From assembly GCA_944391515.1 (NCBI GenBank), contig CALXTW010000006.1, positions 4,978 through 68,977 on the forward strand: a stretch of DNA of 64,000 nucleotides, read 5' to 3'. Shown here piece by piece: positions 42,236 through 48,338 of this stretch. Below the pieces are notes generated by a model that saw nothing but the letters and a program-made list of their open reading frames with translations, was not told the DNA's origin and made no database searches. Made by a program: the position numbers and the translations under genes. This DNA is from an uncultured Alphaproteobacteria bacterium (GTDB lineage Bacteria; Pseudomonadota; Alphaproteobacteria; RF32; CAG-239). Within the stretch, counting starts at the first letter, position 1; each line of letters starts with the position of its first letter.

Positions 42236-43492
42236 CTAAGCAATTTTAATCAAACCGTGTTTTTTCTTTCCTTGAGAGAGCTTAATCTGCCCGTCAATCA
42301 CGTCCGCAGAAGAGAACTTATAGTTCTCGTCGCTCACAACTTGGTCATTGATTTTGAGACCTGCTTGTTTGACCAAACGGCGACCTTCACCTTTGCTGGC
42401 GATAAAGCCGAGTTCAACAAAGGCATCAAGCATAGACAATCCTTCAACGCTTGCTTTTTCAAGACAAGGCAAATCTCCTCCGGCCAAGCCTTTTTCAAAA
42501 GTGGCAATGGCGGTTTCTTGAGCCGCTTTGGCTTCTTCTTCGCCACGACAAATTTTGGTAGCTTCAAAGGCCAAAATTTTCTTAGCTTCGTTAATTTCTT
42601 GGTCTTTAAGGGCTTCCAAGCGTCTGATTTCATTCATCGGTAAATCGGTATAAATACGCAAGCATTTGCCAACTTCGGCATCACCGATGTTACGAAAATA
42701 TTGATAGTAGTTATAGCTGGGGAGTTTTTCTTCATTAATCCAAACCGCATTTCCTTCGGATTTACCCATTTTTTTACCATTTGAATCCGTAATAATCGGG
42801 CTGGTAAATCCAAAGAGCTCAACGTCATATTTTCTGCGTCCGAGTTCGGTACCTGAGGTAATATTACCCCATTGGTCAGAGCCAGCTATTTGCGCACGGC
42901 AACCATATTTTTGGAAGAGTTCGCAAAAGTCATATCCTTGTAAGAGCATATAGTTAAATTCCAAGAAAGACATAGGTTGCTCTCTGTCCAAACGAGATTT
43001 CACGCTGTCCATGGTCAACATACGGTTAACCGAATAATAGGTTCCGATATCGCGTAAAAAGGCGAGGTAATTAATATCCTTAAACCAATCCCAGTTATCA
43101 ACCATCACGGCGTCATTTGCGCTGTTTCCGAATTTCAAGAATTTAGAAAAAGATTTTTTCAAACCTTCAATATTGTGTTTGAGTGTTTCTTCATCCAAAA
43201 ACGGGCGGAGTTTATCTTTACCCGACGGGTCGCCGATTCGAGCGGTTGCACCACCGACCAAAGTTAAAGGTTTATGACCGCATTTTTGGAACCAACGCAT
43301 CATCATCAAAGGGACGATATGTCCGACATGCAAGCTGTCTCCGGTAGGATCAGAGCCCAGGTAGCCGACAGCTGGTTTTCCAGATTTTTCGCACTCATAC
43401 AAGTAAGCATCAAAGGCGCTTTCATTCGTGCATTGATTGTAAAAACCGCGTTCCACCATAATATTTAAAAATTCAGATTTAAATTGGCTCAT
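42236..43492 (-). CDS. tyrS: Tyrosine--tRNA ligase
   Basis: DPTGDSLHVGH, QGYDF, GSDQWGNI, KMGKS, C-terminal S4 domain. Confidence 0.98.
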   Translation of the reverse strand: MSQFKSEFLNIMVERGFYNQCTNESAFDAYLYECEKSGKPAVGYLGSDPTGDSLHVGHIVPLMMMRWFQKCGHKPLTLVGGATARIGDPSGKDKLRPFLDEETLKHNIEGLKKSFSKFLKFGNSANDAVMVDNWDWFKDINYLAFLRDIGTYYSVNRMLTMDSVKSRLDREQPMSFLEFNYMLLQGYDFCELFQKYGCRAQIAGSDQWGNITSGTELGRRKYDVELFGFTSPIITDSNGKKMGKSEGNAVWINEEKLPSYNYYQYFRNIGDAEVGKCLRIYTDLPMNEIRRLEALKDQEINEAKKILAFEATKICRGEEEAKAAQETAIATFEKGLAGGDLPCLEKASVEGLSMLDAFVELGFIASKGEGRRLVKQAGLKINDQVVSDENYKFSSADVIDGQIKLSQGKKKHGLIKIA

Positions 43493-43607
43493 TTTCCTTA
43501 TCCTAAAACAAAAATAAAACAGCTAAAAATAGCTGAAGTTTCATAAATTCTTAACCGATAATATCATATAATTCCAACAATGCAACAACAGAGGTCAATT
43601 TTTTATC

Positions 43608-44768: not shown

Positions 44769-44912
44769 ATGAATAGAATTAATATTAGCGGGCAAGATTT
44801 ATCGCAAGATAAAAATCCGCAAAAGGATGTCTGGTATAAAGACCTAGTAATTATTGTATTTCTGGTAATGGTTTTTTACTACATGATATTCGGAGAAGCT
44901 CCGGTTGTGTAA
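44769..44912 (+). CDS. Small single-TM protein, 47 aa
   Basis: Not in track: MNRINISGQDLSQDKNPQKDVWYKDLVIIVFLVMVFYYMIFGEAPVV*; TAAGGA RBS; hairpin + T8 downstream. Confidence 0.65.
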   Translation: MNRINISGQDLSQDKNPQKDVWYKDLVIIVFLVMVFYYMIFGEAPVV

Positions 44913-45003
44913 AATCTTTACCCGTAACGCTCACTCAAAAACCATACAAGCTCCCACAAAGCCTTTATGGTTTTTTTTGTTTTCTAAAACCGATAGATTC
45001 TGT

Positions 45004-45032
45004 TTGACTCGATGGAAAAGTTGTATTAAATT
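45004..45032 (+). promoter_or_regulatory. Putative sigma70 promoter of the ileS leader
   Basis: TTGACT-N17-TAAATT. Confidence 0.55.
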
Positions 45033-45063
45033 TCTGAAAGATTTTCAAAAGAAAGATACCAAG

Positions 45064-45111
45064 ATGCAAATAAATATCATAAATCACATTCCGTTCATTA
45101 TTATCCCTTAG
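45064..45111 (+). CDS. Ile-rich leader peptide MQINIINHIPFIIIP (candidate ileS attenuator)
   Basis: 7 Ile codons in 15, including a 3-Ile run; stop 89 nt upstream of ileS. Confidence 0.7.
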   Translation: MQINIINHIPFIIIP

Positions 45112-45200
45112 GGGATTGCATCATATTTCATACATATCAAATTCATCAATTTCAAAAATTTTAAGTTTTAATAATCAATACAGATACAAGGTGTTTAAGG

Positions 45201-48200
45201 ATGACTAAACATTATGCTGAAGTAAAGGCAAAGGCTGACTTTGTCGAACTGGAAAAAGAAGTTCTCAAGTTTTGGGAAGAAGATAAAACCTTTGAAAAAT
45301 CAGTCCACAACCGTGACGGTGCGGCTGAATTTGTGTTCTATGACGGACCTCCGTTTGCCAATGGTACGCCGCACTATGGACACATTATGGTCTCTTATGT
45401 CAAAGACGTTGTTGCTCGTTTCCAAACCATGAACGGCAAAAAAGTTGAACGCCGCCTCGGATGGGACTGCCACGGTCTTCCGGCTGAAATGTCTGCCGAA
45501 AAGCAGTTAGGTGTTTCAGGGCGTAAACAAATTGAAGAATTCGGCGTTGAAAAATTTAATGACTTCTGCCGTTCTGACGTTTTGAAATATTCAGGTATCT
45601 GGGTTGATATGTTCAAACGCATCGGTCGTTGGGTTGACTTTAACCATGACTATAAGACCATGGATTTGCCTTTTATGGAAAGTGTTATCCATAATTTCAA
45701 AGAGTTGTATGATAAAGGCTTGGTCTATGAAGATTACCGCGTTTTGCCATATTCTTGGGCTGCCGAAACTCCTTTGTCAAACTTTGAGGTCAATCAAGGC
45801 TACCAAGACAAAACCGATAATGCCATTACCGTAATGTTCAAACTTGAAAACGGCATGAATATTTTGGTATGGACCACCACTCCTTGGACCTTACCTTCCA
45901 ACCTGATGTTGGCTGTTGGCTTAGATATTGACTATGCCATTATGGAAGAGGACGCTCAAAAATATGTTTTGGCACAAGCCTTACTTGGCAGATACAAAAA
46001 ACAACTCGAACACGCTACCCAAGTCGGAAGCATCAAAGGTAAAGATTTGGTAGGCTTGAGCTATGAGCCGATGTTCCCGTATTTTAAGGATTTGAAAGCC
46101 AAAGGTGCCTTTAAGGTTTTGAGCGGTGAATTCGTTTCGACCGAAGACGGTACCGGTATTGTTCATATTGCCCCGGGCTTTGGTCAAGATGACTTTGATG
46201 CTTGCCGTGCTTATGATGAAAACTTCCCCGTCGTTTGCCCGGTAGATGAAGCCGGTAAGTTCACTTCCGAAGTTCCCGATTATGAGGGCAAGCAGGTGTT
46301 TGAAACCAATGAGCCGATTATGCAACTCTTAAAAGAGCGTGGCATCTTGGTTAAAAAAGAGCAATACACTCACTCATACCCGTTCTGCTGGAGAACAGAT
46401 ACGCCGTTGATTTATAAGGCTATGTCCAGCTGGTTTGTTAAGGTAACGGATTTCCGTGATGAAATGGTGAAGAATAACCAACAAATCAATTGGGTTCCTG
46501 AGCATATTAAAGACGGCCGTTTCGGTAAATGGCTGGAAGGCGCGCGTGATTGGTCAATTTCCAGAAATCGTTTCTGGGGTACACCGATTCCGGTTTGGAA
46601 ATCTGATAACCCGAAATTCCCGCGGATTGATGTCTTTGGCTCAATTCAAGAGATTAAAGAAAAGACCGGATTTGAGGTTACCAATCTGCATAAGCCTTAT
46701 ATTGATGATGTGGTTTATCCCAATCCGGATGACCCGTCGGGGCAAACCATGATGCGCCGCGTAGGTGATGTGTTTGACTGCTGGTTTGAATCCGGCTCAA
46801 TGCCCTATGCGCAAATTCACTATCCGTTTGAAAACAAAGAGTGGTTTGAAAGCCACTTCCCGGCCGACTTTATTGTTGAGGCTATGGACCAAACCCGTGG
46901 TTGGTTCTACACCTTAACGGTATTATCCACGGCTCTGCACAATCGTCCGGCATTCAAAAATTGTATCTGTACCGGTTTGCTGATGGCCGAAGGCGGACAA
47001 AAGCTCTCCAAACGCCTCAAGAACTATCCAGACCCGAATGAGGTTTTGGATTCAATTGGTTCTGATGCTCTGCGTTGGTTCTTGGTTTCTTCTCCGGTCT
47101 TAAAAGGCGGAAATCTGGCGGTCGATAAAGAAGGTAAAGAAATTGCCAAAGCCTCTCGCGTGGCACAAATTCCGCTGTGGAATGCTTTTTACTTCTTCAC
47201 ACTCTATGCTAATGCCGAAGAATATCAAGCCAAAGAAATCAGCTCTTCATCTGAGGCAATTGATAACTATATTCTCTCTAAGTTGAAACACTTGGCCGAA
47301 GTTGTTAAATCAGGCATTGAAAGCTACGATGTTGCTTTAGCCACCAATGAGTTAGCCTCATTTATGGAAGTTCTGAACAACTGGTACATTCGCCGCACTC
47401 GTGACCGTTTCTGGGAAGGCGAGGCTCAAGCCTTTGACACACTCTATACGGTTTTGGTCAATACTTGTAAAATTGCCGCACCTCTGATGCCGTTCTTGAG
47501 TGAATATATCTTCAAAGCCTTAACCGGTGAAGAATCCGTCCACTTGGCAGATTATCCAAGCTTGAGTGCGATTAAGTACGATGCCGAATTGGTCAGCACC
47601 ATGGACTTTGTCCAAGATTTGTGCTCAACCGGTAAGTTCATCCGTGAGGAAAAGAACTTAAGAAACCGTCTGCCGTTAAACAGCTTAACGGTCATCGGAG
47701 CTGAGTTAAGTCCGGCTTATCAAGAGATTGTTAAAGATGAGCTCAATGTAAAACAAGTTAAATTTGACAATCATCTTGAAAATTATGCCACGAAGAAAAT
47801 CTACCTCTATACGCCATTGTTGGGTAAAGCCTTAGGCAAGGCAATGGGCGCGGTTATGGCTGCTTATAAGCAAGGCCAATGGAGCCTAAACGAAGACGGA
47901 ACGCTCTTCATCGGCGGTCAAACTTTGACCAAAGACTTGTTTGAAGTCCGCCTAGAGATGAAAGACGGCGTTGCCGGTAAGTCTTTTGCCGATAACAAGG
48001 CTGTTGTAACCTTGGATACCACAGTAACGGATGCCCTCAAACGTGAAGGCATGGCTAGAGACTTTGTGCGCCTGGTTCAAACTTTGCGTAAAGACAAAGA
48101 CTTTAATATTTCCGATAGAATAGAATTGAGCTATAAAACACCTGACGCCGAATTGGCTCAAGCTCTGGAAGAAAATAAAGACTATGTCGCAGAGCAGGTT

Positions 48201-48290
48201 TTAGCAGTCAAATTCAACAATGATTGCAGTGAGGGCACTCAGGCAGACATTGAAGGCAAGTCAATTTGCTTTGATGCCAAAGTTGCCTAA
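45201..48290 (+). CDS. ileS: Isoleucine--tRNA ligase, type 2 (IleRS2)
   Basis: FYDGPPFANG.PHYGH, GWDCHGLP, WTTTPWTLPSN, DWSISRNRFWGTPIP, KLSKRLKNY; 1029 aa, no C-terminal Zn finger. Confidence 0.96.
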   Translation: MTKHYAEVKAKADFVELEKEVLKFWEEDKTFEKSVHNRDGAAEFVFYDGPPFANGTPHYGHIMVSYVKDVVARFQTMNGKKVERRLGWDCHGLPAEMSAEKQLGVSGRKQIEEFGVEKFNDFCRSDVLKYSGIWVDMFKRIGRWVDFNHDYKTMDLPFMESVIHNFKELYDKGLVYEDYRVLPYSWAAETPLSNFEVNQGYQDKTDNAITVMFKLENGMNILVWTTTPWTLPSNLMLAVGLDIDYAIMEEDAQKYVLAQALLGRYKKQLEHATQVGSIKGKDLVGLSYEPMFPYFKDLKAKGAFKVLSGEFVSTEDGTGIVHIAPGFGQDDFDACRAYDENFPVVCPVDEAGKFTSEVPDYEGKQVFETNEPIMQLLKERGILVKKEQYTHSYPFCWRTDTPLIYKAMSSWFVKVTDFRDEMVKNNQQINWVPEHIKDGRFGKWLEGARDWSISRNRFWGTPIPVWKSDNPKFPRIDVFGSIQEIKEKTGFEVTNLHKPYIDDVVYPNPDDPSGQTMMRRVGDVFDCWFESGSMPYAQIHYPFENKEWFESHFPADFIVEAMDQTRGWFYTLTVLSTALHNRPAFKNCICTGLLMAEGGQKLSKRLKNYPDPNEVLDSIGSDALRWFLVSSPVLKGGNLAVDKEGKEIAKASRVAQIPLWNAFYFFTLYANAEEYQAKEISSSSEAIDNYILSKLKHLAEVVKSGIESYDVALATNELASFMEVLNNWYIRRTRDRFWEGEAQAFDTLYTVLVNTCKIAAPLMPFLSEYIFKALTGEESVHLADYPSLSAIKYDAELVSTMDFVQDLCSTGKFIREEKNLRNRLPLNSLTVIGAELSPAYQEIVKDELNVKQVKFDNHLENYATKKIYLYTPLLGKALGKAMGAVMAAYKQGQWSLNEDGTLFIGGQTLTKDLFEVRLEMKDGVAGKSFADNKAVVTLDTTVTDALKREGMARDFVRLVQTLRKDKDFNISDRIELSYKTPDAELAQALEENKDYVAEQVLAVKFNNDCSEGTQADIEGKSICFDAKVA

Positions 48291-48310: not shown

Positions 48311-48338
48311 AAAAAGAGGTCGCAAGACCTCTTTTTTT
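48311..48338 (+). terminator. ileS terminator
   Basis: A5-gaggtc-gcaa-gacctc-T7. Confidence 0.9.

Follow-up and report, generated by a model that had tools for sequence, protein, structure and literature searches.

Upstream of ileS, the gene for isoleucine--tRNA ligase (IleRS), in a 64,000-nucleotide stretch of DNA from an uncultured Alphaproteobacteria bacterium (GenBank contig CALXTW010000006.1, positions 4,978 to 68,977 of the forward strand; hereafter the window, with positions counted from its first letter), lies a 15-codon, isoleucine-rich leader open reading frame (ORF) for which the name ileL is proposed. Comparison with related loci supports, with a probability of about 0.85, an Ile-tRNA-sensing leader peptide that controls ileS in cis. 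The specific mechanism favored below, occlusion of an intrinsic terminator by the leader ribosome, is put at slightly under even odds. An original prediction made from the letters of the window had at its core a translated Ile-rich leader regulating ileS, and this core passed the comparative check, with a homologous Ile-rich upstream ORF (uORF) present in 69 leaders.

ileL occupies 45064-45111 on the plus strand, from an ATG at 45064 to a TAG at 45109-45111, and encodes MQINIINHIPFIIIP followed by the stop. As first described, seven of its 15 codons specify Ile (at 45070, 45076, 45079, 45088, 45097, 45100, and 45103) and all three Ile codons are used, ATA twice, ATC twice, and ATT three times; the 3′ end reads ATT ATC CCT TAG. 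The comparison set comprised 611 ATG-started ORFs of 10-25 codons from all six frames of the window, with a mean Ile fraction of 0.075, and ileL is the only one with at least seven Ile codons or an Ile fraction of at least 0.4, so its Ile richness is not compositional. The 70% A+T assumed in the original chance estimate fits the ileS-upstream intergenic region, itself ∼70% A+T, but not the window as a whole, which has a G+C content of 39.9% rather than 30%. A weak, purine-rich Shine-Dalgarno (SD)-like stretch, AAAGAAAGA (45047-45056, plus strand), precedes the ATG with a pairing energy of -0.9 kcal/mol; the family mean over the 69 leaders is -2.9 kcal/mol, compared with +0.5 kcal/mol at background positions.

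The predicted sigma-70-type promoter was listed by a promoter scan at 45004-45032 on the plus strand, with a -35 element TTGACT (45004-45009), a 17-nt spacer, and a -10 element TAAATT (45027-45032), and the transcription start site is probably near 45039. The arrangement TTGAC-N17-TAnnnT is aligned in nearly all of the relatives' 69 leaders.

Relatives were collected by scanning one genome per species, which returned 80 loci (L001-L080) with IleRS 73-99% identical to that of the window, from metagenome-assembled genomes of human gut, rumen, and other animal guts. Nearly all are labeled as uncultured Alphaproteobacteria, and some as "Azospirillum sp.", Azospirillaceae, or Rhodospirillales. A uORF of 13-17 codons is carried by 69 distinct ileS leaders (66 unique uORFs), with IleRS 79-99% identical, whereas the element is missing from L068, L069, and L073-L078, in which IleRS is at most 78% identical, and it is therefore restricted to one clade. 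In each of the 69 leaders an in-frame ATG stands 36-57 nt ahead of the last twelve bases, ATT ATC CCY TAR, which are invariant and followed by GGGAT, and 67-110 nt, in most leaders 73-89 nt, separate the uORF stop from the ileS ATG. The N-terminal halves of the peptides differ freely, changes in uORF length come in whole codons, and no stops occur in frame. Metagenome contigs scanned for the exact pattern yielded 125 matches; in 42 of these ileS lies just downstream, and all 42 have a new variant of the Ile-rich peptide, while one additional match has an Ile-rich uORF cut by the contig end. Control of other genes by the same motif was rejected as a candidate, as no remaining match had an Ile-rich uORF, the rest being unrelated chance or foreign occurrences, and the window itself holds a single copy.

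Conservation follows the meaning of the codons. Besides the two invariant Ile codons at the uORF end, Ile makes up 29.6% of the variable codons in frame, compared with 12.5% and 8.5% in the two alternative frames. ATT, ATC, and ATA replace one another freely at positions -8 and -7, so what is selected there is codon meaning and not the bases. Position -10 is ATA in 45 of the 66 uORFs, and ATA accounts for 89 of 200 leader Ile codons (44%), an overuse of ∼3-fold relative to the window's 49 genes, where it supplies 15% of Ile codons; in ileS itself it is used once in 46. Such a bias points to monitoring of the minor tRNA-Ile. Of the 66 uORFs, 57 end in TAG and none in TGA, although TAG ends only eight of the 49 window genes; the preference could be a structural constraint of the hairpin loop described next or a requirement for RF1.

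Two RNA helices accompany the uORF. The P2 hairpin, AUCCC-UUAG-GGGAU (45103-45116, plus strand; arms 45103-45107 and 45112-45116), takes its 5′ arm from the last Ile and Pro codons and holds the stop codon in its loop, as had been predicted, and the corresponding DNA pattern occurs once in the window against 0.02 occurrences expected by chance. Across the family P2 has the form (U)AUCCC(C)/(G)GGGAU(A), with a core that is invariant in the 69 leaders, every one of which has the last two sense codons as the 5′ arm and the stop codon in the loop. The Pro codon has changed from CCU to CCC in 28 of the 66 uORFs, mostly together with an extra G in the 3′ arm. In the second helix, P1, the segment right after P2 pairs back with the uORF start codon or, in a few clades, with the uORF SD; in the window the arms of P1 are GAUGCA (45063-45068, plus strand), which includes the start codon, and UGCAUC (45117-45122, plus strand), which directly abuts P2.

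The long-range pairing claimed to mask the leader start is upheld on two counts, since P1 appears together with P2 in both the minimum free energy (MFE) and centroid folds of the window leader and P1 covaries among relatives. The local P1-P2 fold has a free energy of -11.2 kcal/mol (z = -2.0), with 6 of 200 shuffles as good. The arm pairs differ by clade, with AAAAAGAUGC/GCAUCUUUUU, AUGUGCA/UGCACAU, AUGCCC/GGGCAU, AUGAGCCG/GCGGCAU, and ACGCAAA/UUUGCGU found beside the GAUGCA/UGCAUC of the window, and because the registers differ P1 was tested through the energies of cognate and non-cognate duplexes. Mean energies were -10.6 kcal/mol for cognate pairs, -7.3 kcal/mol for non-cognate pairs, and -4.0 kcal/mol for a control region, and the cognate mean was reached in none of 10,000 permutations, a statistic that ignores phylogeny. 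Complementarity by chance appears unlikely given the many distinct complementary solutions. RNAalifold applied to a MAFFT alignment of 52 leaders recovered the P2 core only.

No antiterminator was found: single-sequence folds of the 69 leaders and RNAalifold give only P1 and P2, which are mutually compatible, and the uORF body and spacer contain too little G to supply either P2 arm with a partner. Rfam gave no match at the gathering threshold over the whole window, and relaxing the E-value to 10 on 44900-45300 gave only far-subthreshold chance matches. A T-box or another known leader family was ruled out, with no T-box sequence or structure and no Rfam match.

The distal part of the leader is an 89-nt spacer that separates the uORF stop from the ileS ATG. 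As predicted, it contains a 46-nt, A/U-rich tract devoid of G and with 8 C (45119-45164, plus strand), and among the 69 leaders the interval from +18 to +60 after the stop has 1-5% G and ∼15% C. The tract is ∼50 nt long in the family, with a median of 4 YC dinucleotides, and the window has G-free runs of 30-40 nt in further intergenic regions as well. An AAUCAA motif lies in the window's spacer at 45173-45178 (plus strand); 56 of the 69 spacers have AATCA, in most cases 22-50 nt ahead of the ileS ATG and sometimes in tandem (AAUCAAUCAAU), and the motif may be contacted by a protein or the ribosome or belong to a Rho site.

The original statement that no intrinsic terminator precedes ileS is correct for the window's species, in which the scan found no terminator-like site between promoter and ileS, but does not extend to the family, as in 47 of the 69 relatives a stretch with at least 5 T in 8 begins within 0-2 nt of P2, a terminator-like arrangement. 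P2 was called as a terminator by the scan in L020 and L061. In the window, a decayed U-rich stretch, AUAUUUCAU (45123-45131, plus strand), follows the P1 3′ arm, and the window's species, together with L001-L003, is an outlier for the U-run. The length of the P2 stem and the T-richness immediately after it are correlated (Spearman 0.73). In leaders with a minimal, 5-bp P2, a G/C linker displaces the T-run; in several of them (L050, L009, and L057, for example), though not all, this linker is paired with the start-codon region, and in such leaders P2 stacked on P1 would form the stem. Because the almost G-free spacer cannot hold a -35 box of the TTGAC type that is conserved upstream of the uORF, ileS appears to be transcribed through P2, and a regulated stop signal is then the natural reading of the hairpin. 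An internal promoter in the spacer is likewise unlikely, the spacer being without G.

These features suggest a sequence of events that is laid out here as a proposal. The ileS mRNA would start at the promoter at 45004-45032 and carry the translated 15-codon leader, whose Ile codons would sense charged tRNA-Ile, both the major isoacceptor reading AUU and AUC and the minor reader of AUA, with the decision taken while the leader is being transcribed. On a leader without a ribosome, whether translation had finished or had never begun, P2 would fold, stacked on or followed by P1, and P2/P1 with the U-run of most family members would stop or release RNA polymerase before ileS. When Ile-tRNA is scarce, a ribosome would stall on the Ile codons, among which the invariant AUU AUC adjoins P2, hold the P2 5′ arm inside itself, and prevent P1 from closing, so that polymerase would continue into ileS. 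The ribosome itself would compete with the terminator, and no antiterminator would be involved. After the decision, P1 would lock the uORF start region, and the leader of the mature mRNA would not be translated again; because the uORF start is buried in P1 once the RNA is complete, sensing is expected to be co-transcriptional rather than repeated on mature mRNA. We infer the stalling itself, the direction of the response, and its timing, polymerase pausing included, and likewise that termination in the window's species, where the U-run has decayed, is intrinsic rather than Rho-mediated.

Several observations weigh against ribosome-gated termination. P2 has a stem of only 5-8 bp, compared with 9-14 bp in the genuine terminators of the genome, and the window has only 3-5 U in the 9 nt after P2/P1, where no terminator was called. 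Since the T-run is often paired with A-rich sequence ahead of the AUG, its conservation may partly serve P1 and not termination. In the large AUGUGCA/UGCACAU class, the P1 3′ arm follows the U-run, so this arm cannot contribute to a terminator stem there. The geometry is also demanding. A ribosome stalled at the early Ile codons, such as the conserved AUA at -10, would leave P2 uncovered, while P2 is covered as well by an unstarved ribosome that has reached the stop codon, and this stall geometry and timing mean that the correct regulatory sign requires polymerase pausing. Of a broader claim we are doubtful, rating it below the termination mechanism itself: that the leader represents a new attenuator architecture and the first worked-out ileS case in Proteobacteria, with an ORF inside a start-hiding helix, no antiterminator, an Ile-Ile-Pro-stop end within a stop hairpin, a minor lysidine-dependent AUA-reading tRNA-Ile sampled beside the major one, possibly a slow-termination (arrest-like) Pro-stop, and a lineage possibly switching between intrinsic and Rho-mediated release, with the window's species as an instance.

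Among the other explanations, release by Rho retains the Ile-sensing leader and is, though rather unlikely, a serious alternative, especially for the window's species. Rho would load on the naked, G-poor leader and spacer RNA once the ribosome has left the UAG and release polymerase before ileS translation, and a stalled ribosome would mask the loading region near the stop, as in tnaC and speFL. The window copy lacks a usable U-run, the spacer is strongly G-depleted family-wide and constrained in length to mostly 73-89 nt, and its G-free tract stays untranslated, with no AUG, GUG, UUG, or SD. TnaC also ends in Pro-stop, like ileL. Rho action has been proposed for Actinobacteria leader peptides without terminators (PMC1262725). 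The original wording, that regulation is probably Rho-dependent, is nonetheless not supported as stated: with 4% G and 15% C the spacer is not enriched for C in absolute terms, its median of 4 YC per ∼50 nt is low for a Rho utilization (rut) site, and comparable G-free runs of 30-40 nt are found elsewhere in the window. A stalled ribosome would moreover shield only ∼15 nt downstream and free the P1 3′ arm, exposing more RNA instead of less, and the terminator-like P2/U-run of most relatives would be superfluous if Rho did the work. Moving the decision to the full-length mRNA is a less likely solution, and we consider it improbable. Here a ribosome stalled on the uORF would keep P1 and P2 open, or would block a 5′-end-dependent RNase acting on the A/U-rich spacer, giving more ileS translation or a longer mRNA half-life, in the manner of ermC or of mRNA stabilization. 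Such a scheme is free of the timing problem, the unstructured A/U-rich spacer would be a good RNase E substrate, and short Ile/Phe-rich arrest leaders such as ErmCL resemble ileL. However, imposing a stalled ribosome leaves the modeled accessibility of the ileS SD/AUG unchanged, no pairing to the ileS SD proved to be conserved, and on mature mRNA the uORF start is hidden by P1, whereas a sensor read repeatedly would need it exposed.

Two further explanations give the Ile codons a secondary or incidental part, and both are less likely still. In a coupling or growth-rate device of the ampC/pyrBI kind, any ribosome close behind polymerase would block P2, and read-through would report translational capacity. 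The stop codon does sit within the terminator-like hairpin, a tightly coupled ribosome would by a rough footprint estimate be on the last Ile codons when polymerase is at the U-run, and aminoacyl-tRNA synthetase levels are known to follow growth rate. We nevertheless hold this to be very improbable, as it leaves the 3-fold Ile enrichment, the synonymous turnover, and the ATA bias unexplained, and as the Ile codons would then cut ileS expression when Ile-tRNA is scarce, a destabilizing feedback. The least probable of all is a protein operator, in which the palindrome or hairpin would be bound as DNA, or as RNA by IleRS as in E. coli thrS, with the ORF incidental. ATCCC-N3/4-GGGAT is a perfect inverted repeat and nucleotide-invariant, including the often unpaired ATT at -4, and the tRNA-Ile anticodon GAU lies within the 3′ arm; against these stand the features conserved outside the palindrome, namely the in-frame ATG, the absence of stops, the whole-codon length changes, the Ile and ATA enrichment, and the SD-like stretch, as well as the P1 covariation, which indicates RNA and not DNA. 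Ribosome occlusion of an intrinsic terminator remains the favored mechanism beside these competitors.

Other candidate routes to ileS translation were considered and rejected. The ileS SD, AAGGUG (45188-45193, plus strand), has a pairing energy of -6.4 kcal/mol, and GG at -11/-10 of ileS is conserved among the 69 leaders. Unmasking of this SD by a stalled leader ribosome was rejected, since the modeled accessibility is unchanged: the unpaired probability of the ileS SD/AUG, from partition functions averaged over the 69 leaders, is 0.50 both with and without the modeled ribosome. Read-through of the UAG into an extended ORF was also set aside, as no frame is preferentially open, as was a hungry-codon +1 frameshift to the UAA overlapping the ileS start, which is open in 24 of the 69 relatives compared with ∼16% expected and is not a family-wide property. 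The window itself has such an arrangement, with an ORF at 45116-45208 (plus strand) in a +1 frame that is open from the final Ile codons to the TAA overlapping the ileS start (ATGACTAAA), and in some species the open frame could permit frameshift-coupled translation.

Several minor features of the leader were recorded in passing. In the full-leader MFE fold of the window, AGAUACC (45054-45060) pairs with GGUGUUU (45190-45196) in the ileS SD region; this pairing is probably fortuitous, being missing even from the near-identical L003 leader. The P2 5′ arm and the ileS SD appear weakly associated by eye, as CCUUAG with UAAGG and CCCUAG with UAGGG. A direct repeat, UUUUUACAUA, occurs in relatives (for example L050, 2847-3009, and L018, 2850-3009) both inside the uORF, at the Phe-Tyr-Ile codons with the conserved AUA, and 10-20 nt after P2; in one clade the copy after P2 serves as the P1 3′ arm, and elsewhere it is conserved with no obvious partner.

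The downstream gene, ileS (45201-48290, plus strand), encodes a 1029-aa enzyme of the long type-2 (MupA/MupB-like) form, which matches TIGR00392 with 880.9 bits (cut-off 621.4); the MupA and MupB models align to the product over the full length with scores under their cut-offs. A terminator-like hairpin, AAAAACCAUA...UAUGGUUUUU, followed by a U-run (44937-44975, plus strand; -10.7 kcal/mol, z = -3.05, with 0 of 200 shuffles folding as well) closes the preceding unit of anmK and a small ORF, so ileS forms its own transcription unit. This unit is monocistronic and ends at a bidirectional intrinsic terminator (48311-48336, both strands), an 11-bp stem between A and T runs; ordinary intrinsic terminators are used by the organism, with stems of 9-14 bp. 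The small ORF (44769-44912, plus strand, 47 aa) between anmK and the terminator preceding the ileS promoter has a hydrophobic C-terminal half and no Pfam match. Downstream of ileS, four consecutive plus-strand ORFs of up to 1382 aa (48463-50769, 50889-51551, 51759-55907, and 56062-58458) have no Pfam match, and the first of these also has no NCBIfam match.

A second synthetase gene in the window, tyrS (42236-43492), is also preceded by a short ORF, 13 codons encoding MKLQLFLAVLFLF followed by a stop (43502-43543, minus strand). It runs through a weak terminator-like hairpin, CAGCTATTTTTAGCTG, with a T-run (43535-43520), located between a promoter-like site and tyrS. A leader similar to ileL was rejected for tyrS. 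The ORF lacks Tyr codons and, among 22 relatives, is shared with the window only by L001-L003, the other 19 being without it; a role as a conserved regulator is improbable.

How tRNA charging governs the genes of aminoacyl-tRNA synthetases is well understood through the T-boxes of Gram-positive bacteria and pheST of E. coli, and we know of no characterized cis-acting sensor for ileS in Proteobacteria. The ileS element would supply one, in an abundant uncultured gut and rumen lineage. Its ∼70 natural variants define the essentials, which are the two invariant Ile codons, a Pro-stop in the loop, the start-masking helix, and the AUA codons, and the copies with and without a U-run provide a natural comparison. 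With no antiterminator, the element would be a compact test case for a ribosome that alone gates termination.

The original remark that no such description for ileS in alphaproteobacteria came to mind largely stands, as full-text searches turned up no account of an Ile-codon leader for ileS, and needs amendment in one respect. An "ileS leader CDS", CCNA_03934, was annotated in Caulobacter crescentus from ribosome profiling and used as a negative control, with no sequence features, conservation, or mechanism reported (PMC4117421). Like ileL it is annotated as a small translated ORF before an alphaproteobacterial ileS; it differs in preceding an ileS of 969 aa, from the coordinates in that paper, compared with 1029 aa here. 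For Methylorubrum ileS, a 5′ untranslated region of 150 nt has been mapped (PMC9320726).

Among known systems, the closest are the classical attenuators pheM-pheST of E. coli, trpL, hisL, ilvL, ivbL, thrL, and leuL, in which a short translated leader rich in cognate codons likewise lies between promoter and gene. The trp 1:2 hairpin offers a specific parallel, with regulatory codons at the end of the ORF adjoining a hairpin that has the stop codon in its loop region, and pheM applies the leader-peptide principle to an aminoacyl-tRNA synthetase operon. The ileS leader differs in having no 2:3 antiterminator, its P1 and P2 being compatible, in drawing the 5′ arm of its terminator-like hairpin from coding sequence, and in having the ORF enclosed, with its start hidden, by a long-range helix; in the window's species the U-run is missing, and no Rfam leader family matches.

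The Rho-dependent leaders tnaC, speFL, and mgtL share with the window copy a leader ORF, an untranslated G-poor spacer, and the absence of a canonical terminator. They sense free ligand, or Pro or Mg2+, by way of an arrest peptide or an alternative structure, and their Rho loading regions (C-rich, G-poor, and unstructured, ∼60-80 nt at or after the end of the ORF) are longer and richer in C, whereas in the ileS leader the signal is the Ile codons, the candidate rut site is weak, and most relatives have a terminator-like U-run. In ampC and pyrBI/pyrE, a translated ORF also overlaps or abuts the terminator hairpin, with no antiterminator, and the ribosome prevents folding, but these systems report ribosome availability or UTP-dependent coupling and have neither a run of cognate codons nor a start-masking helix. 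Whereas the sensor of the ileS leader works like that of the pheM and trp/his/ilv leaders, its output stage is closer to ampC/pyrBI occlusion or, as an alternative, to tnaC/speFL. Translational attenuation of the ermC/cat type depends on a downstream SD that is sequestered in a hairpin and opened by a stalled ribosome, an arrangement that modeling did not find in the ileS leader. The ileS T-boxes of Firmicutes, and the translational ones of Actinobacteria (PMC1262725), act on the same gene in response to the same signal, charged versus uncharged tRNA-Ile, whereas the leader described here has no T-box sequence or structure and would sense through the ribosome. The ileS element belongs to the long-known leader-peptide attenuators, and it refines, rather than overturns, known biology.

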